NCBI RefSeq assembly: GCF_003019035.1
Contig: NZ_CP027447.1
DNA length: 64,000 nucleotides
Direction: 5' to 3' (one strand)
Source of the DNA: Escherichia coli
GTDB taxonomy: Bacteria > Pseudomonadota > Gammaproteobacteria > Enterobacterales > Enterobacteriaceae
In this document: positions 26,381 through 59,430 of the stretch, one piece after another
Position numbering within the stretch: position 1 is the stretch's first letter
Layout of the letters: the number at the start of each line of letters is the position of its first letter
The notes under the pieces: model-generated
Database searches by the model: none
The model's input: the letters and a program-made list of their open reading frames with translations, nothing else
What the model was told of the DNA's origin: nothing
Position numbers and translations under genes: made by a program

Positions 26381-29300
26381 ATGAGCGGAAAACCGGCGGC
26401 GCGTCAGGGAGATATGACCCAGTATGGCGGTCCCATTGTCCAGGGTTCGGCAGGTGTAAGAATTGGCGCGCCCACCGGCGTGGCCTGTTCAGTGTGCCCG
26501 GGCGGAGTCACTTCCGGCAACCCGGTAAACCCGCTGCTGGGAGCGAAGGTGCTGCCCGGTGAGACGGATGTTGCGCTGCCCGGTCCGCTGCCGTTCATTC
26601 TCTCCCGCACCTACAGCAGCTACCGGACCCGGACGCCTGCACCGGTGGGCGTTTTCGGCCCCGGCTGGAAAGCGCCTTCTGATATCCGCTTACAGCTACG
26701 TGATGACGGACTGATACTCAACGACAACGGCGGGCGGAGCATTCACTTTGAGCCGCTGCTGCCGGGGGAGGCGGTGTACAGCCGCAGCGAGTCAATGTGG
26801 CTGGTGCGTGGCGGTAAGGCAACGCAGCCGGACGGCCACACGCTGGCACGGCTGTGGGCGTCGCTGCCGCCGGATATCCGGTTAAGCCCGCATCTTTACC
26901 TGGCGACCAACAGCGCACAGGGGCCGTGGTGGATACTCGGCTGGTCAGAGCGGGTGCCGGGTACTGAGGACGTACTGCCAGCGCCGCTGCCGCCGTACCG
27001 GGTGCTTACCGGGCTGGCGGACCGCTTCGGGCAGACGCTGACGTACCGGCGTGAGGCCGCCGGTGACCTGGCCGGGGAAATCACCGGCGTGACGGACGGT
27101 GCCGGGCGGAAGTTCCGTCTGGTGCTGACCACACAGGCGCAGCGGGCGGAAGAGGCCCGTAAACAGCACACCGCTTCCTTATCTTCCCCTGACACCCCCC
27201 GCCCTCTTTCAGACTCAGCTTTCCCCGACACACTGCCCGGTACGGAATACGGCCCCGACAGGGGTATCCGCCTTTCGGCGGTGTGGCTGATGCACGACCC
27301 GGCATACCCGGAAAGCCTGCCCGGTGCGCCACTGGCGCGGTACACGTATACGGAAGCCGGTGAACTGCTGGCGGTATATGACCGCAGCAATACGCAGGTG
27401 CGCGCTTTCACGTATGACGTGCAGCACCCGGGCCGGATGGTGGGGCACCGTTATGCGGGAAGGCCGGAGATGCGCTACCGCTACGACAATACCGGGCGGG
27501 TGGTGGAGCAGCTGAACCCGGCAGGGTTAAGCTATCGCTATCTTTATGAGCAGGACCGCATCACCATCACGGACAGCCTGAACCGGCGAGAGGTGCTGCA
27601 TACAGAAGGCGGGGCCGGGCTGAAGCGGGTGGTGAAAAAAGAACTGGCGGACGGCAGCGTCACGCACAGCGGGTATGACGCGGCAGGAAGGCTCACGGCA
27701 CAGACGGACGCGGCGGGACGGCAGACAGAGTACGGTCTGAATGTGGTGTCAGGCGATATCACGGACATCACCACGCCGGACGGGCGGGAGACGAAATTTT
27801 ACTATAACGACGGGAACCAGGTGACGGCAGTGGTGTCCCCGGACGGGCTGGAGAGCCGCCGGGCGTATGATGAGCGGGACAGGCTGGTAACGGAGACATC
27901 GCGCAGTGGGGACGTCATCCGGTATGCTTATGATAATCCGCACAGTGAATTACCGGCCACGACAACAGATGCGACGGGCAGCACCCGGCAGATGACCTGG
28001 AGCCGCTACGGGCAGTTGCTGGCGTTCACCGACTGCTCGGGCTACCAGACCCGCTATGAGTACGACCGCTTCGGCCAGATGACGGCGGTCCACCGCGAGG
28101 AAGGCATCAGCCTTTACCGCCGCTATGACAACCGTGGCCGGTTAACCTCGGTGAAAGACGCACAGGCCCGTGAAACGCAGTATGAGTACAACGCCGCAGG
28201 CGACCTGACTGCCGTTATCACCCCGGATGGCAACCGGAGTGAGACACAGTACGATGGGTGGGGAAAGGCCATCAGCACCACGCAGGGCGGGCTGACGCGC
28301 AGTATGGAGTACGATGCTGCCGGACGTATCACCACGCTGACTAACGAGAACGGCAGCCACAGCGACTTTAGTTACGATGCGCTGGACCGCCTGATACAGC
28401 AGGGCGGCTTTGACGGGCGGACGCAACGTTATCATTATGACCTGACCGGAAAACTCACGCAGAGTGAAGATGAGGGGCTTGTCATCCTCTGGTACTACGA
28501 TGAATCGGACCGTATTACTCACCGCACGGTAAACGGTGAACCGGCAGAACAGTGGCGGTATGACGGCCACGGCTGGCTGAGAGAAATCAGCCACCTGAGC
28601 GAAGGCCACCGTGTTGCCGTCCACTATGGCTATGATAATAAAGGCCGCCTGACCAGTGAGCGCCAGACGGTGCATCACCCGGAGACGGGAGAGCTGCTCT
28701 GGCAGCATGAGACCGGACATGCGTACAACGAACAGGGGCTGGCAAACCGCGTCACGCCGGACAGTCTGCCGCCGGTGGAGTGGCTGACCTATGGTAGCGG
28801 TTATCTGGCAGGCATGAAGCTGGGCGGGACGCCGCTGCTGGAGTTCACGCGCGACCGCCTGCACCGTGAGACGGTGCGCAGCTTCGGCAGCATGGCAGGC
28901 AGTAATGCCGCATACGAACTGACCAGCACATACACCCCTGCAGGCCAGTTACAGAGTCAGCACCTGAACAGCCTGGTGTATGACCGTGACTACGGGTGGA
29001 ATGACAACGGAGACCTGGTGCGCATCAGCGGCCCGCGACAGACGCGGGAATACGGCTACAGCGCCACGGGCAGGCTGGAGAGTGTGCGCACCCTCGCACC
29101 GGACCTGGACATCCGCATCCCGTATGCCACGGACCCGGCGGGCAACCGGCTGCCGGACCCGGAGCTGCACCCGGACAGTACACTCACAGTGTGGCCGGAT
29201 AACCGCATCGCGGAGGATGCGCACTATGTCTACCGCCACGATGAATACGGCAGGCTGACGGAGAAGACGGACCGCATCCCGGCGGGTGTGATACGGACGG

Positions 29301-29989
29301 ACGACGAGCGGACCCACCACTACCACTACGACAGCCAGCACCGCCTGGTGTTCTACACGCGGATACAGCATGGCGAGCCACTGGTCGAGAGCCGCTACGT
29401 CTACGACCCGCAGGGACGGCGAATGGCGAAACGGGTATGGCGGCGGGAGCGTGACCTGACGGGGTGGATGTCGCTGTCGCGTAAACCGGAGGTGACGTGG
29501 TACGGCTGGGACGGCGACCACCTGACGACGGTGCAGACCGACAGCACACGTATCCAGACGGTATACGAGCCGGGAAGCTTCACACCGCTCATCCGCATCG
29601 AAACAGACAACGGCGAGCGGGAGAAAACGCAGCGGCGGAGCCTGGCGGAGAAGCTCCAGCAGGAAGGGAGCGAGGACGGACACGGTGTGGTGTTCCCGGC
29701 TGAACTGGTGAGGATGCTGGACAGGCTGGAGGAAGAAATCCGGGCAGACCGCGTGAGCGGTGAAAGCCGGACGTGGCTTGCACAGTGCGGGCTGGCGGTG
29801 GAGCAACTGGAAAAACAGGTGGAGCCGGAATACACGCCGGAACGCACACTGCATCTTTACCACTGCGACCATCGGGGACTGCCGCTGGCGCTTATCAGCG
29901 AAGACGGCAATACGGTGTGGAGCGCGGAGTATGATGAATGGGGAAACCTGCTTAATGAGGAGAACCCGCATCATGTGTATCAGTCATAG
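26381..29989 (+). CDS. rhs: PAAR-like/Rhs-repeat protein core, terminated by an in-frame TAG at 29987-29989
   Basis: 1202-aa ORF; N-terminal AARQGD...[18 protein letters not shown] (prePAAR/PAAR-like), long run of YD/Rhs repeats ([32 protein letters not shown]), ends ...[10 protein letters not shown] then stop. Confidence 0.85.
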
Positions 29990-31099: not shown

Positions 31100-32450
31100 A
31101 TGGTTCTGCGAGTCAGACGTTTGATTCAGGTTCTCAGGGGCAGATTCAGGGACAGGGAAAGATCATCAGAAGTTCACTTTTTGCACTAAATAATTCGCAT
31201 TTTATGTTTAAAAATTGAGATATTTCTCATTACCTGAAACTGTTTTTTTATTGCTTATACATGATCAAATACTCCTTACATAATTAAGGAGAACAAAATG
31301 GAACTTAAAAAATTGATGGAACATATTTCTGTTATCCCCGATTACAGACAAGCCTGGAAAGTGGAACATAAATTATCGGATATTCTACTGTTGACTATTT
31401 GTGCCGTTATTTCGGGTGCAGAAGGCTGGGAAGATATAGAGGATTTTGGGGAAACACATCTCGATTTTTTGAAGCAATATGGTGATTTTGATAATGGTAT
31501 TCCTGTTCACGATACCATTGCCAGAGTTGTATCCTGTATCAGTCCTGCAAAATTTCACGAGTGCTTTATTAACTGGATGCGTGACTGCCATTCTTCAGAT
31601 GATAAAGACGTCATCGCAATTGATGGAAAAACACTCCGGCATTCTTATGACAAGAGTCGCCGCAGGGGAGCGATTCATGTCATTAGTGCGTTCTCAACAA
31701 TGCACAGTCTGGTCATCGGACAGATCAGGACGGATGAGAAATCCAATGAGATTACAGCTATCCCTGAACTTCTTAACATGGTGGATATTAAAGGAAAAAT
31801 CATCACAACTGATGCGATGGGTTGCCAGAAAGATATAGCAGAGAAGATACAAAAACAGGGCGGTGATTATTTATTCGCTGTAAAAGGAAATCAGGGTCGG
31901 CTAAATAAAGCCTTTGAGGAAAAATTCCCACTGAAAGAATTAAATAATCCAGAACATGACAGTTACGCAATTAGTGAAAAGAGTCACGGCAGAGAAGAAA
32001 TCCGTCTTCACATTGTTTGCGATGTCCCTGATGAACTTATTGATTTCACGTTTGAATGGAAAGGTCTGAAGAAATTATGCGTGGCAGTCTCCTTTCGGTC
32101 AATAATAGCAGAACAAAAGAAAGAGCCCGAAATGACGGTCAGATATTATATCAGTTCTGCTGATTTAACCGCAGAGAAGTTCGCCACAGCAATCCGAAAC
32201 CACTGGCACGTGGAGAATAAGCTGCACTGGCGTCTGGACGTGGTAATGAATGAAGACGACTGCAAAATAAGAAGAGGAAATGCAGCAGAATTATTTTCAG
32301 GGATACGGCACATCGCTATTAATATTTTAACGAATGATAAGGTATTCAAGGCAGGGTTAAGACGTAAGATGCGAAAAGCAGCCATGGACAGAAACTACCT
32401 GGCGTCAGTCCTTGCGGGGAGCGGGCTTTCGTAATCTTGCCCTGACCCGT
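31100..32450 (+). mobile_element. H-repeat / ISAs1-family insertion sequence at the distal end of the Rhs element (boundaries approximate)
   Basis: Contains the 378-aa H-repeat-associated transposase ORF; exact inverted-repeat ends not resolved by eye. Confidence 0.45.
31298..32434 (+). CDS. ISAs1-family transposase (H-repeat-associated protein)
   Basis: 378-aa ORF, RBS aaggag; DDE-type transposase typically found 3' of rhs genes in E. coli. Confidence 0.8.
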
Positions 32451-33922: not shown

Positions 33923-36367
33923 TTACGCGGCTTCAACTTTTCGCACTTTCTCCGGCAACTTTACCGGCTTCGTCGCCAGCTCTTCCGGATCAAAGTCATC
34001 AACATTAATACTGCGCAGACGGCTTTCTTCAGCTTTCACAAGAATAGCGGCTTCATCTTTATCAATCAGCCCCTTCGCCAGCGCGTTATGCGCCAGTTCA
34101 TCCAGACGGGTAAATGGCAGGTTTTTACCCAGCTCTTTACAGATCCTCTGATGAATTGGGTCGGCGGCAATCACATCCACCAGTGCCTCTTCCAGTAAAC
34201 CAACCGGGTTATGCTCGCTCGGCGTCAGGTACTGACCGCGGCCAATACGTGAGCGGGTGGCGTTTGGCACTTGTAAAATCTTCGCCACTTTATGATCCAG
34301 CTTGTCAGACGGTGCCAGATAATGACGTCCGGTCGGGAAGATCACCACATTCAGCAGCCCGGCAACCACGCGGTTCGGGAAGTTTTGCAGTAAATCGTCC
34401 ATCGCCTGCTCTGCCTGATACAGCGCATCCTGTACGCCCCAGTGCACCAGCGGCAGGTCGGCTTCATTACGGCCTTCGTCGTCATAACGCTTCAGAACGG
34501 CAGAGGCGAGGTAAAGCTGGCTTAAAATATCCCCCAGACGTGCCGAGATGCGCTCGCGACGTTTCAGGCTGCCGCCCAGCACCGCCATCGAGACATCAGA
34601 AAGCAGGGCGAGGTTGGCGCTCAGGCGGTTAAGATGCTGATAGTAGCGTTTAGTGGCATCGCCGGTTGGCGTGCTGCTGGTTAAACCGCGCGTCAGGCCC
34701 AGCCAGAAGCTGCGAACTTTGTTGCTACCGACGTGACCGATATGTTTGAACAGCAGTTTATCGAACGCGTTAACGTCATTGTTCTTCGCCGCTTCCATCT
34801 CTTCCAGCACGTACGGATGGCAACGAATCGCCCCCTGGCCGAAGATCATCATACTGCGGGTCAGAATGTTGGTCCCTTCAACGGTGATGGCAATCGGTGC
34901 GCCCTGATAAGCACGGGCCAGGAAGTTGCTCTGCCCGAGCATAATGCCTTTACCGCCGGTAATATCCATTGCATCAATAATTGACTGCTGCCCGCGGTGG
35001 GTACAGTGATACTTAACGATAGCCGACAGCACGGCAGGTTTTTCACCGAGCATAATGCCGTAGGTAATCAGCGATGCCGCAGCATCCATCACGTAGGCAT
35101 TACCGGCAATACGCGCCAGCGGCTCTTCAATCCCTTCCATCTTACCAATAGAGATTTTGAACTGACGGCGGATGTGCGCATACGCACCCGTTGCCAGCGC
35201 TACCGATTTCACGCCGCCGGTTGAGTTGGAAGGCAGGGTGATACCGCGGCCTACCGAGAGGCACTCCACCAGCATCCGCCAGCCTTGCCCGGCCATTTTC
35301 GGCCCGCCGATGATGTAATCGATCGGCACGAAGACATCTTTACCGCGCGTCGGTCCGTTCTGGAACGGTACGTTCAGCGGGAAGTGGCGACGACCAATTT
35401 CCACGCCCGGCGTGGTGGTCGGGATCAGCGCACAGGTAATACCTAAATCTTCTGTACCGCCGAGTAATTTCTCCGGGTCGGAGAGTTTAAACGCCAGCCC
35501 AAGCACGGTCGCAATCGGTGCCAGCGTAATGTAACGTTTGTTCCAGGTCAGTCGCATCCCCAGCACCTGCTGGCCCTGCCACTCGCCCATGCAAACAATC
35601 CCGGTATCCGGAATCGCGCCCGCATCGGAACCCGCTTCGGGGCTGGTCAGTGCAAAGCAAGGGATCTCCTGACCACGCGCCAGACGCGGCAGATAGTGAT
35701 CTTTCTGCTCGTCAGTGCCGTAATGTTGCAGCAGCTCGCCCGGACCTAATGAGTTCGGCACGCCGACGGTAATCGCCAGGATCCCGCTCACGCCGGAGAG
35801 TTTTTGCAGCACGCGAGACTGGGCATAAGCCGAGAACTCCAGCCCGCCGTACTCTTTTTTGATGATCATCGCGAAGAAGCGATGCTCTTTAAGATACGCC
35901 CACAGCTCCGGCGGCAAATCCGCCAGCTCATGGGTAATCTGGAAATCATTCGCCATCCGGCAGGCTTCTTCTACCGGACCGTCGAGAAACGCTTGCTCTT
36001 CAGCGGTCAGGCGCGGCTGCGGATAGTTATGCAGCTTTTTCCAGTCCGGCTTGCCCTGGAACAAATCGCCTTCCCACCAGGTGGTGCCCGCATCAATCGC
36101 TTCTTTCTCCGTGCGCGACATCGGCGGCATCACCTTACGGAAACCGCGAAATACCGGCGCGGAAATCATCGACCTACGCATAGGCGCAAAGTTAAATGGC
36201 ACGAGGATAATGGCCAGAGGCACCAGTACCCACACCGACCACAGACCAGCGACGCCGAGGGCGGCTGTCCAGGCGAGCAAAATCAGACTGCTGATAAATA
36301 AGCTCACGCGGTGATAGAACAACGCGCCGAGCAGGACAACCGTAGCGAGAATACTCAAAATCATCAT
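33923..36367 (-). CDS. fadE: Acyl-CoA dehydrogenase FadE
   Basis: About 814 aa from [20 protein letters not shown]; N-terminal membrane segment and acyl-CoA dehydrogenase core; the ORF-track N-terminal extension is rejected. Confidence 0.9.
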
Positions 36368-36387
36368 AACGAAAAGCCCCTTACTTG

Positions 36388-36406
36388 TAGGAGGTCTGAC
36401 CACTTG
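36388..36406 (-). promoter_or_regulatory. Candidate FadR operator upstream of fadE
   Basis: Palindromic GGTCTGACC core (gaggtctgaccac) about 25 bp upstream of the fadE start, resembling FadR sites (TGGTCnGACC). Confidence 0.4.
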
Positions 36407-36606
36407 TGATGATATGGTTGTAGTGGATGTGAAAACATTTAGCAATGCGTTTACAATATAATTACAACAAAGCTCACATTGTTGCTGTTTTTATCCGCAC
36501 TTCAGGTCAAAAAGTCCTGGTCATAGCACCTGCCCGTACTTCTCGCTTTTGGCGGTATCCGGTACACTGCATTTTGTCTATTACATTTATGCTGAAGGAT
36601 ATCCTC

Positions 36607-47134: not shown

Positions 47135-48121
47135 ATGTCTGAACTTATTGCAACTGCCGCTTCCAGCATTAACGCTTTTACTCTGGCAAAGCGTGTCGCC
47201 GCCTTTAACGTGCCGGTGCTCATTCAGGGCGAAACCGGTGCGGGCAAAGAGTGCGTGGCGAAATATATTCACACAGTCGCCTTTGGTGAAAATGAAAGCG
47301 CACCCTATGTCGGCGTGAACTGCGCGGCGATCCCGGAAAATATGCTGGAATCTACCTTATTTGGCTACGACAAAGGCGCATTTACCGGCGCAATTGCCAG
47401 CGTGCCAGGAAAAATGGAACTGGCGAATAACGGCACCTTATTACTCGATGAAATTGGCGATATGCCGCTGGCGTTACAGGCCAAAATATTACGCGTATTG
47501 CAGGAACAACAGGTTGAGCGATTAGGCAGCAACCGACAAATTAAACTCAATTTTCGCCTGATTGCCTGTACCAATAAAAACCTTGAACAGGAAGTTGCCA
47601 CCGGGCGTTTTCGTGAAGATCTCTATTATCGTCTGGCGGTGATTCCTATTACCATGCCGCCGCTGCGTGAACGTCTGAACGATATTATTCCGCTGGCAGA
47701 GTCATTTATTAAAAAATACTCCACGGTGCTGGTGAAAAATATCACCCTGTCGGAATCTACCCGCCGGGCGCTGCTCAATTACCGCTGGCCCGGCAACGTG
47801 CGCCAGCTCGAAAACGCCATTCAGCGTGGAATGATTTTAAATCGCGACGGCGTGATTTTCCCGGATGCCTTAGGCCTGCCGGAAACAGACGTTGCCGACC
47901 ACAGTGAACTGCAATGGCCTGTTCAGCCTGCCGTCCACATTGCCGAAACCAGCGATTTAGGCCAGCACGGACGAAGTGCGCAATATCAATATATCGCCGA
48001 CCTGATGCGTAAATATCAGGGCAACCGCAGCAAAATTGCCGACCTGTTAGGCATTACCCCGCGCGCACTGCGCTATCGACTGGCCTCCATGCGCAAGCAC
48101 GGTATCGAAGTTTTCTCCTGA
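47135..48121 (+). CDS. lafK: Sigma-54-dependent transcriptional activator of lateral flagella, lacking an N-terminal receiver domain
   Basis: 328-aa ORF beginning directly in the AAA+ sigma-54 activation domain (Walker A GETGAGKE, GAFTGA motif, C-terminal HTH); an upstream in-frame stop precludes a receiver domain. Confidence 0.8.
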   Translation: MSELIATAASSINAFTLAKRVAAFNVPVLIQGETGAGKECVAKYIHTVAFGENESAPYVGVNCAAIPENMLESTLFGYDKGAFTGAIASVPGKMELANNGTLLLDEIGDMPLALQAKILRVLQEQQVERLGSNRQIKLNFRLIACTNKNLEQEVATGRFREDLYYRLAVIPITMPPLRERLNDIIPLAESFIKKYSTVLVKNITLSESTRRALLNYRWPGNVRQLENAIQRGMILNRDGVIFPDALGLPETDVADHSELQWPVQPAVHIAETSDLGQHGRSAQYQYIADLMRKYQGNRSKIADLLGITPRALRYRLASMRKHGIEVFS

Positions 48122-53162: not shown

Positions 53163-53597
53163 ATGCGACAAATCATCGACACCCTGGCGCAGTTGCAGCG
53201 CCTGCGGGATAAATCGGTCAAAGACAAAACCGTCGAGCTGGCAAAGCAAAAACAGATTTGTGCGGGTTATGACAACAATATCAAAGCATTAGGCTACCTG
53301 GTGGAGAAAACATCTGCGGGCGCGGCAGCGTCGGTGGAATCGCTGAAAAACGTCAGCGGTTACAAAGGTACGCTGCGCAAGGTGATCGCCTGGCAGGAGC
53401 AGGAAAAAACGCTAGCTAGCATCAAAGCCACGCGAATGCAGAAAAACCTCACGGCGGCGGCGTGCGAAGAGAAAGTGGTGGCCCTGACGCTGGACGACAA
53501 ACGCCGCGAGCAGCAAGAAAGTGCCACGGCGAAAGCGCAAAAAGCGGTGGATGACATCGCCGTCCAGTGCTGGCTGCGGCATAAGTTAGCGGAGTAG
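53163..53597 (+). CDS. lfiJ: Lateral flagellar export chaperone (FliJ homologue)
   Basis: About 144 aa from MRQIIDTLAQLQRLRDKS; position after the FliI homologue. Confidence 0.7.
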   Translation: MRQIIDTLAQLQRLRDKSVKDKTVELAKQKQICAGYDNNIKALGYLVEKTSAGAAASVESLKNVSGYKGTLRKVIAWQEQEKTLASIKATRMQKNLTAAACEEKVVALTLDDKRREQQESATAKAQKAVDDIAVQCWLRHKLAE

Positions 53598-53599
53598 CC

Positions 53600-54004
53600 A
53601 TGAAAACGGTCATCACCTTCGGCACCTTCGATGTGTTTCATGTCGGTCATCTGCGCCTTTTACAACGCGCCCGCACGCTGGGCGAACGGCTGCTGGTCGG
53701 CGTATCGTCCGACGCCTTAAATATCGCCAAAAAGGGCAGAGCACCGGTTTACCCTCAGGATGACCGCATGGCGATTATCGCCGGGCTGGCGTGCGTGGAT
53801 GGCGTATTTCTCGAAGAATCGCTGGAGCAGAAAGCGGAGTATTTGCGCGGGTACAGTGCGGATATTTTGGTGATGGGCGATGACTGGGCAGGGAAGTTTG
53901 ATAGCTTTGCGTATATTTGTGAGGTGGTGTATTTCCCCCGTACGCCGTCGGTGTCGACGACGGGGATTATTGAGGTGATTAGGGGGAAATCAGCAACCTA
54001 CTGA
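53600..54004 (+). CDS. Glycerol-3-phosphate cytidylyltransferase (TagD-like) encoded at the end of the lafK-lfiEFGHIJ operon
   Basis: 134-aa ORF starting 3 bp after lfiJ; nucleotidyltransferase HxGH motif (FGTFDVFHVGHLRLL) and C-terminal MGDDWAGKFD...CEVVYFPRTPSVSTTGI, closely paralleling Bacillus TagD as recalled. Confidence 0.8.
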   Translation: MKTVITFGTFDVFHVGHLRLLQRARTLGERLLVGVSSDALNIAKKGRAPVYPQDDRMAIIAGLACVDGVFLEESLEQKAEYLRGYSADILVMGDDWAGKFDSFAYICEVVYFPRTPSVSTTGIIEVIRGKSATY

Positions 54005-54052
54005 TTTAATTCCCGAAGTGAGAGAAGATGATGCCGTTTGGCTATGTTAAAT

Positions 54053-54155
54053 ATGTTTAAAAAATCGCGTTTTTTCGACATATCCCCAAAACATGTCGAT
54101 GGCATAAACGTATTCCAACGACATGTTTAAAAATCGCATTTTATCGACATATCCC
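54053..54155. repeat. Two about 34-bp imperfect direct repeats, each with internal dyad symmetry, between convergent TagD-like and glycosyltransferase genes
   Basis: atgtttaaaaaatcgcgttttttcgacatatcccc (54053-54087) and atgtttaaaaatcgcattttatcgacatatccc (54123-54155); the second overlaps the glycosyltransferase stop codon. Confidence 0.6.
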
Positions 54156-56612
54156 TGACGATTCCTTGCCCGCCAACGTCTCCACAATCACCATCGCCGC
54201 CCGTTCTCCCGCCTTGCCATCCATAAACGCATCGCAATAGTGATGACGAATCTTCGTAAGCCGCGCCTGCACCGCACCCCAGTCAAACGCCTCTGACAAC
54301 AAATAACGCAGTTCCGCAACATCATGAGCCACCGGCAATATTTCGCGGATTCGCTGGTCGGCGCTCTCCGGCGTGGAGTAGCTTTTCTCGCCGTCGAGCA
54401 ATTCACTCATGCCCGGAAAGTCGAGCAGGATCACCCGCTTATCGACATGGATAGCATCGAAAATAAAGCCGCTGTTATCGGTCAGCACGTAATCGGCCTT
54501 TGCCAGCAGCGCCAGCGTGTGGCGGGCGGAGTCGGTGCGCTGTTTTAAATGTCTGCGCGCGAGTGCCAGCGATGCAGTTTCTTCCGGGCGCGAGCAGGTG
54601 CCGTGGTGCAGTTTGCAAATCAGGTTCACATCATCGCTTAAGCGCCCCAATTTTTCTGCCCAGTGGGGCAGGGAGCTTAATGCGCCAAACGTTGGGGCGT
54701 AGAGCACCGTAGGTTTACGGGAATCGGGTTGAATATTTTCTGGCAGAATGCGGTCAAACGTGCCGTTATGCCAGGCGTCGAAGCGCGGGTTGCCGACTGC
54801 TTTTGCATTGCCGAAATGCGCCAGCGCCCGCTGGCTGTAGTGGCTGTAACACAAAATGCGCTGATAAAAACGGTTCCAGTCGGCGTGGTTCCACGTCTCT
54901 TTGGCTAAGCCGTACATGGCGCGAACGTTCACCGCTGCCAGGCCATTGAGCGCGGGCGTGTGGTAGGGGCTGACCAGGCATTTCACCCGCTGACCGTGTG
55001 CCTGCATTTCAGATAAGCGCATTCCTTTAAGCTGCGGATCGTCGATGCTTTTTAGCGTCTCCAGCATTTCATCCAGAAACGGTTTAAACACGCGGTCATT
55101 GATCACCAGTGTGCAGCTCTGCCCCTGCGCCTGTAGAGCGGTGATGATTGGGCGATACAGCGAGTAGTGGAATGAGGTTTCCATAAAAAAGCCGATGGTG
55201 TTGGCGATGGGGAATGCGGATGGTTTTGTAACTACGGGTAACTTATTGAAATAGTGACTAATGTTGTCGGTCACTTTTTTCTCGATGTCACTAAAGCCCG
55301 GTCGCTGATAACTAAGGCTCGGGTAACAGGCCAGCCATTTGTCGGCGCGCAGCAGCGGCTGCCAGCACTCTTCCAGCGAGTGCTCACCGTTGCCCATCTG
55401 CTGTGCCAGTTGCGGGTAGTAGCGGCTGTTCACCAGATAAGCACACACTTTGCGGCAGTCCCGCGCGTGCACCAGCCCCGGCAAACTTTTTAGCATCGTT
55501 CCCTGCGAAATTTCGCCGCCAAGGATCATCACCTGCCAGGGAATTTTCGCCAGGCTCGCCAGCAGCGTGTTCAGCACCTGAATATGTTTCTCCTGCTTGA
55601 GAATAACCGCGTCATCTTCCAGCAGCAGATAGTTTTGCCAGCCGTGCTGTTGCGCCAGGCGCAGCGCCTGCAAGTGCGACAGGCGGCGGCCCCGTTGACC
55701 GTTTTCATCTTCACAGGCGGCAAGGCGGGTGATTTTCTCGGGCGGAATATGCAGCAGTGCCAGTTCTTCACGGATCTGTTGTAAGCGATCCGGGCGTTTA
55801 TCCAGATTGATCAATACGACCTGATCGATCGCCTGATGGTTGATCGCCTGGTGATGAGTGGCGTTATGCAGACTCAGATAAGCATTGCGGAGCAGCGGAT
55901 CGCGGACGATATCCGTAAGCGCCGCGTTTACTGGCGTGCTGGCCCCGAGAATAAAGTCTTTATCAAAGGTGTTGTGGCTGTGCGAGATACACAAAATCGT
56001 GCGCTCGCCGGGCAGTTGTAGCGGGTTAGCGCTGAAATTGTCGGTGAAACTTTTCTCTTCGCCTAAATTGCAATCGTCATCGTAGCGGTGCTTTTTCAGG
56101 TAGTTACGGTGATAGCAAAAGGTGCCGTTGAGGATGTTATGCGGGCCGAAGCTGCGGCTTTGAAAGATGCGATTGATGTGGCTGTACCAGATGGGGATCT
56201 GGTCGGAACCGGAGATGAGCGCCCGGTTTTTTTGCATCATAGCGATGGTGTAAGAGATTTTATCTGCCGGGTAGTAGTCGTCATCGTCCATGCAGAGGAT
56301 GTATTCGCCGCGCGCCAGTTCGTTGAGCATATTGCGTTTTTTGCCCAGCGGCAGTTTTTCCGGGTGATGGATGTAGCGGATGTTGAAGGCTTCCTGTGTG
56401 CCATTGGTCAGGCGGTCGATGATGTGTTGATGGCTTTGCGGGGAATCGTCGAGGATGATGAGTTCGCGGCGGTCTGCCGGGTAGTCCTGATAGCGGTACA
56501 TATAAAGCAGGTACGGCAGGAATGCGCTGCGGTTCCAGGTTGGCGTGACGACGCTGACGAACGGTTTTTCGCGCTGGGTGGCGAGTGTTTTGATAATGGT
56601 TGGTGTTGGCAT
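54141..56612 (-). CDS. Large multidomain glycosyltransferase: N-terminal GT2-like, central GT25-like and C-terminal TagB/TagF-like CDP-glycerol glycerophosphotransferase domains
   Basis: N-terminus VSVVTPTWNRSAFL...ILDDSP...CMDDDDYY (GT-A/DxD); central VVLINLDKRPDRLQQI (GT25-like); C-terminus TVLYAPTFG...VLTDNSGFIFDAI (TagF-like). Start set at MPTPTIIK; the ORF-track extension to 56684 runs through a repeat element and is uncertain. Confidence 0.7.
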   Translation of the reverse strand: MPTPTIIKTLATQREKPFVSVVTPTWNRSAFLPYLLYMYRYQDYPADRRELIILDDSPQSHQHIIDRLTNGTQEAFNIRYIHHPEKLPLGKKRNMLNELARGEYILCMDDDDYYPADKISYTIAMMQKNRALISGSDQIPIWYSHINRIFQSRSFGPHNILNGTFCYHRNYLKKHRYDDDCNLGEEKSFTDNFSANPLQLPGERTILCISHSHNTFDKDFILGASTPVNAALTDIVRDPLLRNAYLSLHNATHHQAINHQAIDQVVLINLDKRPDRLQQIREELALLHIPPEKITRLAACEDENGQRGRRLSHLQALRLAQQHGWQNYLLLEDDAVILKQEKHIQVLNTLLASLAKIPWQVMILGGEISQGTMLKSLPGLVHARDCRKVCAYLVNSRYYPQLAQQMGNGEHSLEECWQPLLRADKWLACYPSLSYQRPGFSDIEKKVTDNISHYFNKLPVVTKPSAFPIANTIGFFMETSFHYSLYRPIITALQAQGQSCTLVINDRVFKPFLDEMLETLKSIDDPQLKGMRLSEMQAHGQRVKCLVSPYHTPALNGLAAVNVRAMYGLAKETWNHADWNRFYQRILCYSHYSQRALAHFGNAKAVGNPRFDAWHNGTFDRILPENIQPDSRKPTVLYAPTFGALSSLPHWAEKLGRLSDDVNLICKLHHGTCSRPEETASLALARRHLKQRTDSARHTLALLAKADYVLTDNSGFIFDAIHVDKRVILLDFPGMSELLDGEKSYSTPESADQRIREILPVAHDVAELRYLLSEAFDWGAVQARLTKIRHHYCDAFMDGKAGERAAMVIVETLAGKESSGICR

Positions 56613-56661
56613 GGTGTTTGGGTGAGTTAATGGGTGAATGTGATGAATGTGCGTGCTGATG

Positions 56662-56770
56662 CCCTCACCCCGACCCTCTCCCACAGGGAGAGGGAGAAAA
56701 CCAGCGCCGATTTTAACACCGTGCTCGATCGGTTCCCTCGCCCCTTTGAGGAGAGGGTTAGGGGGAGGGG
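56662..56770. repeat. Pair of inverted GC-rich repeat units (Box C-like family)
   Basis: ccctcaccccgaccctctcccacagggagaggga (56662-56697) and ccctcgcccctttgaggagagggttagggggagggg (56735-56770) in opposite orientation. Confidence 0.5.
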
Positions 56771-56790
56771 AAAAGCGCGCACAGAGCGAC

Positions 56791-57720
56791 TCACGTCAGC
56801 AGCGAAAATGCTGACAGCAGCGGCTCTGCCGCACATAACGACTGGAGCTGCTGGCGAATCGCCGCAGCATTTTCACTCTCTCGCCAGCGTTCAAACACCG
56901 CAAAAAGGGCGAAAATATCCTCCTTCCGCAGCGGTGAACCATCCAGCGTCCATAAACTGATTAACGTGCGGATGAGATAAAAATCACACACCAGCGGGCA
57001 ATAATCTGCTCCGTCTGCCTGCCCAATCACGTCGTGATAAACGCGGTAAATCAGCCAGTTGCGCATCATCCACGGCGCGGCGGCAAAATGCTGTTGCCAG
57101 GTGGTTTGCCACTGCACCTTAAGCTGCTGTTGCAACAAAGCTTCGCTGTTGGCGTCATGCAACGTCAGCAAAGTCACCTGCAACGGTAGCGAGGCTTTGC
57201 GCGGGCTTTCCGGCAAAATCGACCAGTCAAACGCAAAACTCCCGAGCAGCGTCACCAGTTGGCGCGCCAGTTGTGGCACGGGTGGGAGTTGGGCGAACTG
57301 TGCCTGTAGCGTGCCTTTTTGTGCATGATCCCCCAGCGCCTGTGGCAGCGTTGTCAAGCGGGCAAGAATATCTCCGTCTCTGCCCGGCATTTTACTGGCG
57401 CGGGAGAGCAAAATCCCGACGGCATACAGGGAAAGCTCCGGGGTTAAATCGGGGAGCGTAAGGGTACTCAAAATTATCTGGTTGACTATCGCATCGCGCG
57501 CGGATAGCTCGGCGGCATTGTCTTCCACAGGGCGGTAGGTGAGCTGTAAATCAAAGGCCCTGGCATCGTTGAGCACCGCTTTGCAACTTTCAATATCGGT
57601 CAATGCCAGGCTCTGGCGAATCTCATTCTTCCAGACCTTGCGGACGTACAAAGGCGAATCGGGATATTGCGTCATAAAATTGCGCACGTATTCCGGTTCG
57701 TAACATTCAATAAAACTCAT
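56791..57720 (-). CDS. Hypothetical protein of the Flag-2 locus
   Basis: About 309 aa from MSFIECYEPEYVRNF; no recognisable motif by eye; sits between lfgN and the glycosyltransferase gene on the same strand. Confidence 0.5.
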   Translation of the reverse strand: MSFIECYEPEYVRNFMTQYPDSPLYVRKVWKNEIRQSLALTDIESCKAVLNDARAFDLQLTYRPVEDNAAELSARDAIVNQIILSTLTLPDLTPELSLYAVGILLSRASKMPGRDGDILARLTTLPQALGDHAQKGTLQAQFAQLPPVPQLARQLVTLLGSFAFDWSILPESPRKASLPLQVTLLTLHDANSEALLQQQLKVQWQTTWQQHFAAAPWMMRNWLIYRVYHDVIGQADGADYCPLVCDFYLIRTLISLWTLDGSPLRKEDIFALFAVFERWRESENAAAIRQQLQSLCAAEPLLSAFSLLT

Positions 57721-57847
57721 AGGTGGCTTCCAGTCTTTATTACTTTGCGGAATGTGCAATAAGCGTGCCGGGAATTTTTGTAATCAAAAACAAGGGATTG
57801 AGAATCAGGCGGAAAATCCGTTTCCGCGATGGGGGAAGGAATTGTCG

Positions 57848-59414: not shown

Positions 59415-59430
59415 TGGCACAGCGATTGCA
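59415..59430 (+). promoter_or_regulatory. Sigma-54 (-24/-12) promoter for the lfgBCDEFG operon
   Basis: TGGCAC-agcga-TTGCA, an exact match to the RpoN consensus, about 37 bp upstream of the lfgB ATG (59467). Confidence 0.65.

Follow-up and report, generated by a model that had tools for sequence, protein, structure and literature searches.

A predicted flagellin-modification cassette of the CDP-glycerol type in variable region 1 of the Escherichia Flag-2 locus

The window analysed here, a stretch of 64,000 nucleotides (nt) of Escherichia coli DNA (RefSeq contig NZ_CP027447.1), carries from ~40.5 kb to its right end a Flag-2 (lateral flagellar) locus of the Escherichia type. Between its flagellar gene clusters 1 and 2, in the interval from lfiJ to lfgN that constitutes variable region 1 (VR1), lie two convergent genes that encode a TagD-like cytidylyltransferase of 134 amino acids (aa) and a three-domain transferase of 823 aa and that adjoin the FliB-like gene lafV. 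With somewhat better than even confidence, we propose that this region is a post-translational modification cassette, which would O-glycosylate the lateral flagellin LafA in the cytoplasm and then cap the glycan with glycerol phosphate drawn from cytidine diphosphate (CDP)-glycerol. The proposal is built on the integrity of the two genes, the families and folds of the encoded domains, the conservation of their motifs, the joint occurrence of the genes across loci, purifying selection and the flagellar context. A first-pass annotation, made from the letters alone, had predicted a glycan containing glycerol phosphate, with flagellin or another flagellar component as its target; this functional reading is supported by the sequence comparisons reported below, from which we infer the donor, the flagellin target and the product.

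The TagD-like cytidylyltransferase and the three-domain transferase

Both open reading frames (ORFs) stand where the first-pass annotation had drawn them (Table 1), and they appear in RefSeq as 'adenylyltransferase/cytidyltransferase family protein' and 'glycosyltransferase'. The claim that the TagD-like gene closes the lafK-lfiEFGHIJ operon also holds: its ATG lies 3 nt beyond the stop codon of lfiJ, the last core gene of the operon, and is preceded 8 nt upstream by GGAG, which argues that it is the last, translationally coupled gene of lfiE-J. The encoded protein matches Pfam CTP_transf_like (E 2e-19), and the NCBIfam model that fits it best is TIGR01518 (glycerol-3-phosphate cytidylyltransferase, a family also listed as cd02171), 40 bits ahead of RfaE domain II, at 113.9 bits against a curated equivalog cut-off of 165.4 bits. 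It aligns over its full length with TagD of Bacillus subtilis (PDB 1COZ; E 2.8e-32, residues 1-129, 59 of 128 positions identical, or 46%) and also with TarD of Staphylococcus aureus (PDB 2B7L; E 1.3e-27), whereas the matches to ethanolamine-phosphate and choline-phosphate cytidylyltransferases (ECT, E 4e-16; CCT, ~1e-6) are far weaker and of partial coverage only. The motifs HVGH (residues 14-17, HxGH), VMGDDWAGKFD and RTPSVSTT are kept, the blocks VMGDDWxGKFD and RTxxxSTT being invariant across flag-2 and Gram-positive TagD proteins, and the ratio of nonsynonymous to synonymous divergence (dN/dS) against Escherichia and Pseudocitrobacter orthologues, 0.015-0.06, indicates strong purifying selection. 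Judged on these comparisons, TagD is the best-supported identity of the 134-aa protein.

The 823-aa protein has neither a transmembrane segment nor a signal peptide, its maximum 19-residue Kyte-Doolittle hydropathy being 1.42; the lack of any hydrophobic segment rules out a membrane or secreted location and points to a cytoplasmic enzyme, as glycosylation of flagellin before export requires. An AlphaFold model, computed from an alignment of 27 orthologues (mean predicted local distance difference test score, pLDDT, 74.8), resolves three domains, with a low-confidence linker at residues 447-467. The N-terminal domain is a GT2 enzyme by its PF00535 match, which recurs in 27 of the 27 orthologues, and by profile matches to GT2 enzymes in PDB; its residues 133-220 are strongly conserved, yet they are modelled with low confidence. 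Among the domain-level hidden Markov model searches named in the first-pass annotation as a check on the architecture, that for GT2 gave support, that for the TagF family (PF04464) was marginal on the protein itself and significant in some orthologues, and that for GT25 (PF01755) gave no support: PF01755 has no match on the 823-aa protein at E <= 10 and reaches E <= 0.001 in a single orthologue out of 27 (Plesiomonas, 5.4e-6).

Other evidence speaks for the second domain. It carries the GT25 motifs VVLINLDKRPDR, GRRLSH and LLLEDD (EDD at residues 332-334), is 30-34% identical to stand-alone GT25-like proteins of VR1 and is modelled at pLDDT 80-93. When the N-terminal 460 residues were compared with PDB by Foldseek, the best match was human collagen galactosyltransferase COLGALT1, a GT25 enzyme (E 2.4e-12, ~540 columns). 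When the whole protein was searched against PDB as a sequence profile, only the GT2 matches were confident, and those to TarL (E 0.012) and COLGALT1 (E 0.74) were marginal. As modelled, the domain thus has a GT-A fold closest to a GT25 structure and GT25-type motifs.

The C-terminal domain has TagF, TarL and Bcs3 as its best structural matches and is modelled at pLDDT 85-95, its sequence identity to TagF and TarL being only ~15%. PF04464 (Glyphos_transf) is marginal on the 823-aa protein (E 0.005, residues 602-728) and reaches E <= 0.001 in 10 of the 27 orthologues (best 1.7e-8); it is precomputed for most stand-alone homologues of 350-380 aa (45-55% identity), which bear the NCBI name 'CDP-glycerol glycerophosphotransferase family'. 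A profile of the domain alone matches TarL (E 1.8e-4), with YAPTFG, KLHH and TDNSGF aligned to APTFRG, KMHP and SDYSSLIYE of TarL. The motifs of the domain are FMETSFHY (476-483), RAMYGLAKE (564-572), GNPRFD (607-612), YAPTFG (638-643), KLHH (667-670) and TDNSGFIFDA (711-720); the two that the first-pass annotation had quoted were found as TVLYAPTFG at residues 635-643 and VLTDNSGFIFDAI at 709-721. The CDP-binding half (the YAPTFG loop, KLHH and TDNSGFIFDA) is present, and it also aligns with canonical relatives. The positions of His444 and His584 of TagF were located by comparing the wild-type and variant PDB sequences 3l7i and 3l7m: His669, in KLHH, occupies the position of His584, and canonical relatives with FHG align this (W/F)HG motif, which in TagF (IQTWHGT) supplies the catalytic base His444, to RAMY567GLAKE. 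Orthologue scans, profiles and Foldseek uphold the GT2, GT25-like and TagF-like architecture of the first-pass annotation, with the caveat that Tyr567 (MYG, residues 566-568, window 54909-54917) replaces the catalytic His444. All members of the flag-2 clade, whether fused or stand-alone, have this tyrosine, which makes it a feature of the clade and not a decay mutation; to go by their invariance and their nearness in sequence, His576, His482 and Glu478 might substitute for His444.

All three transferase domains are under purifying selection (dN/dS 0.07-0.25 for each), the TagF-like domain showing 0.08-0.25 in TagD-bearing lineages. Synonymous divergence (dS) of 53600-57720 from the locus of E. 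coli AR_0077, which is 96.8% identical to that of the window, is mosaic: 0.019 in lafV and 0.006 in the GT2 domain; 0.233 in the GT25-like domain, 0.174 in the TagF-like domain and 0.223 in TagD; and 0.056-0.063 in fliI/fliJ. This pattern suggests recombination with a breakpoint near residue 255, inside the transferase gene, and distinct alleles of the C-terminal two-thirds of that gene and of TagD.

Gene co-occurrence and flagellar context

We gathered 34 related loci, a genome scan contributing at least 26, of which 30 were informative; three that are shortened or rearranged (L010, L016 and L034) were left out of the co-occurrence count. Among the loci listed, with Plesiomonas counted apart, TagD is present in 16 of the 16 that have an intact TagF-family partner and absent from 11 of the 11 that have only a short GT2+GT25-like protein and no TagF-family protein, counts that come from a modest, phylogenetically clustered sample and are phylogenetically non-independent. 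The partner is fused in 14 of the 16; in an Erwinia metagenome-assembled genome (MAG) it is a separate TagB-like gene, and in Enterobacter sp. R1 it is a TarF-like gene at a distance. The same association is seen under these three different gene arrangements. Leminorella and Atlantibacter keep the three-domain protein, lack TagD and show decay of the TagF motifs (YGLAK to PTQTN/AGIAE, KLHH to LLHN/VMQH, APTFG to APSLD/APKLD and TDNSGF to SDDDAR/GDNRAL), and dN of their TagF-like domain is ~3 times that of the GT2 domain. These comparative data support a functional link between TagD and the TagF-like domain. The Plesiomonas locus (Plesiomonas sp. MAG, L004, 6001-13618) has intact TagF-like motifs and no TagD but a different nucleotidyltransferase (NTP_transferase), together with a glutamine amidotransferase and a 1011-aa PEP-utilising protein (PPDK_N/PEP-utilizers), beside motB; such neighbours hint that its transferase may be fed by a different CDP-donor pathway.

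Other cargo was also seen at this position. In some flag-2 loci (L002, 6001-10052; L003, 11103-12904), a KpsS/KpsC-type Capsule_synth domain (PF05159) replaces or accompanies the TagF-like domain, and a hexapeptide acyltransferase and a stand-alone GT25 are encoded as well; a KpsS/Capsule_synth domain also stands in for the TagF-family protein in some of the 11 loci that lack one. It looks as if different third modules are exchanged on a common GT2+GT25-like core. In VR1 of Citrobacter sp. FP75 (L020, 11549-17143), five extra genes lie between the transferase and TagD, and the three identified, a further GT2, a DesI/PseC-type sugar aminotransferase and an ATP-grasp enzyme, fit a glycan-building island, which suggests that the glycan is more elaborate there than in E. 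coli.

The same cassette lies between fliJ and flgN, with a FliB-like gene adjoining, in Escherichia, Pseudocitrobacter, Citrobacter, Enterobacter and Pseudescherichia, and the GT2+GT25-like core protein adjoins fliJ, flgN or lafV in all enterobacterial loci listed except the 825-bp fragment L034; in Plesiomonas it adjoins motB. Of 5426 complete E. coli genomes, 832 (~15%) carry at least 80% of the region, whose DNA is 94-97% identical to that of many complete E. coli chromosomes. In the window, lfiJ forms the left edge of VR1, all Flag-2 ORFs are full length, and lafV, lfgN, lfgM and lfgA share the strand of the 823-aa gene and lie upstream of it. The module has a G+C content of 0.53-0.56 against 0.58-0.62 in the flanking flagellar genes. 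No flippase, ABC exporter, undecaprenyl-phosphate priming transferase, kps-type or lipid-anchor gene was found beside the cassette in the inspected loci.

The lafV product falls below the cut-off of its NCBIfam model (Table 1); Pfam FliB_C was found on its orthologues, and lafV itself is under purifying selection (dN/dS 0.08-0.23). A GGCA-N6-TTGC element 50-67 nt upstream of the lafV ATG is kept in Escherichia, Pseudocitrobacter, Citrobacter, Atlantibacter and Phytobacter loci and is a putative LafK-dependent promoter of a lafV-glycosyltransferase operon, LafK (47135-48121) being the sigma-54 activator encoded in the locus. The lafV and lfgB sites are consistent, as sequence matches, with LafK/sigma-54 control of both divergent operons. 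The lafV ORF can be extended to TTG 57759 (322 aa), overlapping the sigma-54-like site, the conserved start being ATG 57720. A search for sigma-28-type promoters (TAAAG-N15-GCCGATAA) gave nothing convincing upstream of either module gene, and generic sigma-70 and terminator scans stayed at background level.

Table 1. Features of the VR1 region of the Flag-2 locus, in window coordinates
Feature	Position	Strand	Basis or remark
lfiJ (FliJ export protein)	53163-53597	+	TIGR02473, 57.7 bits (cut-off 50.45); RefSeq annotation of E. coli AR_0077 locus concordant
TagD-like cytidylyltransferase, 134 aa	53600-54004	+	Pfam, NCBIfam and PDB 1COZ similarity; predicted CTP:sn-glycerol-3-phosphate cytidylyltransferase yielding CDP-glycerol
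AT-rich spacer between the convergent genes	54005-54140		Hairpins ~54051-54083 and 54089-54128
Three-domain transferase, 823 aa	54141-56612	-	Start ATG 56612; start and length as in RefSeq
TagF-like GT-B domain, residues 466-823	54144-55217	-	Pfam in orthologues, TarL profile match, structure; predicted CDP-alcohol (CDP-glycerol) phosphotransferase
GT25-like GT-A domain, residues 256-465	55218-55847	-	NLDKRPDR motif, EDD332-334 metal/nucleotide-sugar motif, Foldseek; predicted second sugar transferase
GT2 GT-A domain, residues 1-255	55848-56612	-	PF00535, E 1.4e-17 (residues 20-134); DDS55-57, DDDD109-112
lafV-transferase spacer with dispersed E. coli intergenic repeat	56613-56790		Repeat core ~56644-56703, includes CCCTCTCCCTGTGGGAGAGGGTCGGGGTGAGGGC
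lafV, FliB-like putative flagellin lysine N-methylase, 309 aa	56791-57720	-	NF038110, 39.3 bits (below cut-off 85); start ATG 57720 as in RefSeq
Sigma-54-type -24/-12 element, cGGCACgcttaTTGC	57756-57770	-	cGGCAC-N5-TTGC, 50 nt upstream of lafV ATG, one mismatch
Perfect sigma-54 consensus, TGGCACagcgaTTGC	59415-59429	+	8 nt upstream of lfgB

The spacer between the two convergent genes contains a 30-nt direct repeat (copies at 54057-54086 and 54126-54155), the second copy of which provides the last codons and the stop of the 823-aa gene. Its RNA fold energy is -32.5 kcal/mol (z = -2.29), and the spacer is probably a two-way terminator; a mobile element, which the repeat had brought to mind, was rejected because E. 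coli genomes have the spacer in one copy only. The spacer between lafV and the transferase gene holds a dispersed repeat which, we believe, resembles the E. coli BoxC repeat. Of 5426 complete E. coli genomes, 3852 contain its 60-nt core, with a median of 2 sites each; in other genera the spacer measures ~17 nt (17 nt in Leminorella and Atlantibacter). The longest mechanical ORF of the 823-aa gene reaches GTG 56684, within this repeat. An Rfam scan gave no match in the module region, the sole match in the whole window being one tRNA. The left part of the window (1-33000) is unrelated to the module and contains this tRNA (137-210), a type VI secretion cluster (TssM, ClpV/TssH, TssF, TssC and VgrG), an RHS core protein (26381-29989) and a transposase of the ISAs1 family (31298-32434); fadE (33923-36445), likewise unrelated, comes next.

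Proposed pathway and alternative explanations

We infer from these data a pathway that covers the donor, the acceptor, the order of steps, the length of the glycan and the product, and that would proceed as follows: (i) the TagD-like enzyme would use cytidine triphosphate (CTP) and sn-glycerol-3-phosphate for the synthesis of CDP-glycerol in the cytoplasm; (ii) the soluble 823-aa enzyme would act on unfolded LafA before flagellar type III export, its GT2 domain placing a first sugar on Ser/Thr of the flagellin's central, Ser/Thr-rich part; (iii) a second sugar would come from the GT25-like domain; (iv) the TagF-like domain would move glycerol phosphate from CDP-glycerol to a sugar hydroxyl, giving a short O-glycan capped by a phosphodiester; and (v) in parallel, LafV would methylate lysines of the flagellin. 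Both module genes would belong to the flagellar regulon, TagD via lfiE-J and the transferase from its place behind lafV, downstream of the sigma-54-type promoter. The LafA gene lies outside the window; LafA of the near-identical AR_0077 locus has a Ser/Thr-rich central region, which offers candidate acceptor sites.

Several points weigh against this pathway. On the donor side, they are the sub-cut-off score of the TagD-like protein and its loop, which reads KKGR (KKGRxPV) where Gram-positive TagD has K-x-K-K: of the Lys44-x-Lys46 pair, which we take to be important in B. subtilis TagD, Lys44 is kept and position 46 is Gly, flanked by Lys45 and Arg47, and the loop is presumably nearer to the ECT/RfaE type than to that of TagD. 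Score and loop together make a different phospho-alcohol substrate possible, and the pairing of the Plesiomonas protein with another nucleotidyltransferase implies that the TagF-like domain is not tied to CDP-glycerol in every lineage. To these are added the modest and clustered sample behind the co-occurrence counts, Tyr567 at the catalytic position, and a C-terminal LLxSLQxKLF tail that is kept in Citrobacter, Enterobacter, Leminorella, Atlantibacter, Plesiomonas and stand-alone TagB-like proteins but missing from the Escherichia and Pseudocitrobacter proteins (window 54141-54170). A frameshifted remnant of the tail was considered and rejected, as no such sequence lies downstream of the 823-aa stop codon in any frame. 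Finally, Flag-2 and LafA were not expressed under laboratory conditions in E. coli EC958 (PMC4637896), and in the searchable literature we found no published evidence, mass spectrometry included, for a glycan or glycerol phosphate on enterobacterial lateral flagellin.

The donor-side points bear most directly on an alternative that we regard as unlikely, if still to be reckoned with, in which architecture and target are as proposed and the donor differs: the TagD-like enzyme would activate phosphoethanolamine, phosphocholine, ribitol-5-phosphate or a phospho-amino acid, and the TagF-like domain would install it on the flagellin glycan, much as FtaD does in Clostridioides difficile. Besides the score, the loop, the Plesiomonas pairing and the ECT and CCT structures among the PDB matches, it can draw on the family-level RefSeq name of the TagD-like protein and on the existence of TagF-like enzymes with donors other than CDP-glycerol (FtaD and TarL). 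It has to contend with the 40-bit lead of the TagD model, the 46% full-length identity to B. subtilis TagD, the two invariant motif blocks and the weakness and partial coverage of those same ECT and CCT matches.

We find it distinctly doubtful that the module acts on another target, be it the hook, cap or hook-associated proteins or the lipopolysaccharide (LPS) core or enterobacterial common antigen, its flagellar position merely reflecting an integration hotspot. VR1 is indeed a hotspot for varied cargo, including toxin-antitoxin and Abi genes; LPS glycosyltransferases belong to the GT25 and GT2 families, according to the Pfam description; and the G+C content of the module is slightly below that of its flanks. 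What such a target leaves unexplained is the translational coupling of TagD to lfiJ, the conserved sigma-54-type promoter shared with lafV, the constancy with which the GT2+GT25-like core sits beside flagellar genes in the listed loci, and a soluble enzyme with no lipid-carrier machinery nearby.

It is quite improbable that the 823-aa protein is a multi-enzyme polymerase that would alternate its three sites to build (sugar-sugar-glycerol-phosphate)n, in the manner of Bcs3 or Cps3D, on flagellin or as a separate surface polymer. Two glycosyltransferase domains and a TagF-like domain in one polypeptide, with a predicted CDP-glycerol synthase adjoining, are the design of such polymerases; one canonical relative of the C-terminal domain has a match in Cps3D, and 'glycopolymers' is the wording of De Maayer et al. 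2020 (PMC6993521). The cassette, however, has no ABC exporter, kps-type or lipid-anchor genes in or near it and no membrane segment, and it always lies within flagellar operons. Moreover, flagellin passes unfolded through a narrow export channel, which limits the size of a glycan, and the nearest flagellar precedents add one phosphodiester-linked group. A long shot of the same kind is that the protein would be a three-site assembly line making a short teichoic-acid-like oligomer of sugar-sugar-glycerol-phosphate repeats directly on lateral flagellin, with Tyr567 in a TagF-type active site, which, if true, would give a polyanionic, teichoic-acid-decorated filament in a Gram-negative bacterium. 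Still more speculative is a variant in which, by analogy with the COLGALT1-like tandem GT-A domains and with the neighbouring lysine-modifying LafV, the sugar would be placed on a lysine side chain and not on Ser/Thr.

It is highly unlikely that in Escherichia, with Flag-2 silent or in decay in many E. coli strains, the cassette persists only as an inactive relic: the silence in EC958 (PMC4637896), the Flag-2 pseudogenes of some strains (e.g., flgD in AR_0077), Tyr567, the missing tail and the dispersed repeat inserted between lafV and the transferase gene could be read in its favor, but the Flag-2 ORFs of the window are full length, dN/dS of the cassette genes is 0.015-0.19 with each domain constrained, Tyr567 is clade-wide and extends to stand-alone enzymes, and genuine decay, as Leminorella and Atlantibacter show in their TagF-like motifs, looks different.

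If LafA glycosylation with glycerol-phosphate capping is confirmed, LafA would become the first flagellin with a demonstrated glycerol-phosphate modification, and the phosphodiester post-glycosylation chemistry of C. difficile and Pseudomonas aeruginosa would be extended to the lateral flagella of Enterobacteriaceae. Carriers of the cassette include ST131-type pathogens, and a filament that is charged and antigenically distinct could have an effect on swarming, adhesion to surfaces, recognition by phages and antibodies, and innate immune sensing. For annotators, the widespread Flag-2 'GT2-1' or 'glycosyltransferase' is a predicted tri-functional enzyme and the missing partner of an orphan TagD. 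The residues pinpointed for mutation are D109-D112, D333/D334, Y567 and H669.

Relation to known systems

The Flag-2 locus was reportedly first described by Ren et al. in 2005, in E. coli 042. The cargo of VR1 was catalogued by De Maayer, Pillay and Coutinho (2020, BMC Genomics 21:100; PMC6993521) at the same locus, equally placed between lfiJ and lfgN, and with the same genes as the module in the window, including TagD, 'GT2-1' and LafV. In their survey, TagD (133 aa) is present in 235 of 592 flag-2 loci, GT2-1 (828 aa) in 222 Enterobacteriaceae strains and a TagB-type protein in 65 strains, and from comparative genomics they proposed that teichoic-acid-type components occur within the flag-2 flagellin glycan (PMC6993521). 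Calling this an unusual chemistry for enterobacterial flagella, as the first-pass annotation did, is thus an overstatement, given these counts, the earlier proposal and the presence of the region in 832 E. coli genomes. Gene content and hypothesis are already published; new here are the fused TagF-like domain, the co-occurrence of TagD and the TagF-like domain, the domain-wise selection and Tyr567. In the published catalogue, GT2-1 is annotated with pfam00535 only, and the fused GT25-like and TagF-like domains, the co-variation of TagD with TagF, the Tyr-for-His replacement and the sigma-54-type promoter are all absent from it. The TagF-like domain fused in GT2-1 explains both an otherwise partnerless TagD and why TagD is far commoner than stand-alone TagB.

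With TagD of wall teichoic acid synthesis, the 134-aa protein shares fold and motifs at 46% identity. With TagF/TarL, Bcs3 and Cps3D, the C-terminal domain of the transferase shares the CDP-binding half, YAPTxG, K-x-His (His584) and TD-x-S-G/S-x-x-F/Y-D/E. Unlike those enzymes, it has a predicted acceptor that is a protein-bound glycan and not a lipid-linked substrate or a polymer end, and the 823-aa protein comes without a membrane-association or tetratricopeptide repeat (TPR) region, without export genes, and with Tyr567 (MYG) in place of His444 of WHG. The N-terminal half resembles COLGALT1/GLT25D1 (CAZy GT25), in which tandem GT-A domains, the second of GT25 type, glycosylate a protein side chain. 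The two differ in that their identity is 13-14%, that COLGALT1 acts on hydroxylysine in the lumen of the endoplasmic reticulum, no hydroxylase gene being encoded near the module in the window, and that the first GT-A domain of COLGALT1 is non-catalytic, whereas both GT-A domains of the 823-aa protein keep DxD-type motifs.

The nearest flagellar precedents, FtaD and PA1091, were likened to the module by description. In C. difficile, the TagF-like FtaD moves phospho-N-methylthreonine from a CDP donor to the O-GlcNAc of flagellin, as shown biochemically, and in P. aeruginosa, PA1091 fuses a glycosyltransferase and a phosphotransferase in one protein (bioRxiv 10.64898/2026.02.12.704994; PMC10714395). 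Like the module in the window, the C. difficile Type A system (the GT2 enzyme FgtA/CD0240 with FtaA-D, FtaD being CD0244) groups a glycosyltransferase, a nucleotidyltransferase and a TagF-like phosphotransferase in the flagellar locus; a cytoplasmic glycosyltransferase adds sugar to flagellin Ser/Thr, and a CDP-activated alcohol is then attached via a phosphodiester. On the other hand, its donor is CDP-N-methylthreonine made by FtaA, FtaB and FtaC, with FtaB resembling a GDP-mannose pyrophosphorylase and not a TagD-type enzyme, and its enzymes are separate proteins without a GT25-like domain. The b-type PA1091 (FgtA) of P. aeruginosa PAO1 shares with the 823-aa protein the fusion of a glycosyltransferase to a TagF-like phosphotransferase, in its case within a flagellar glycosylation island, and yields a sugar linked by a phosphodiester to a small group; its donor is a threonine derivative (N,N-dimethylthreonine) from PA1088-PA1090, the homologues of FtaA-C, in contrast to the TagD-type partner found in the Escherichia cassette.

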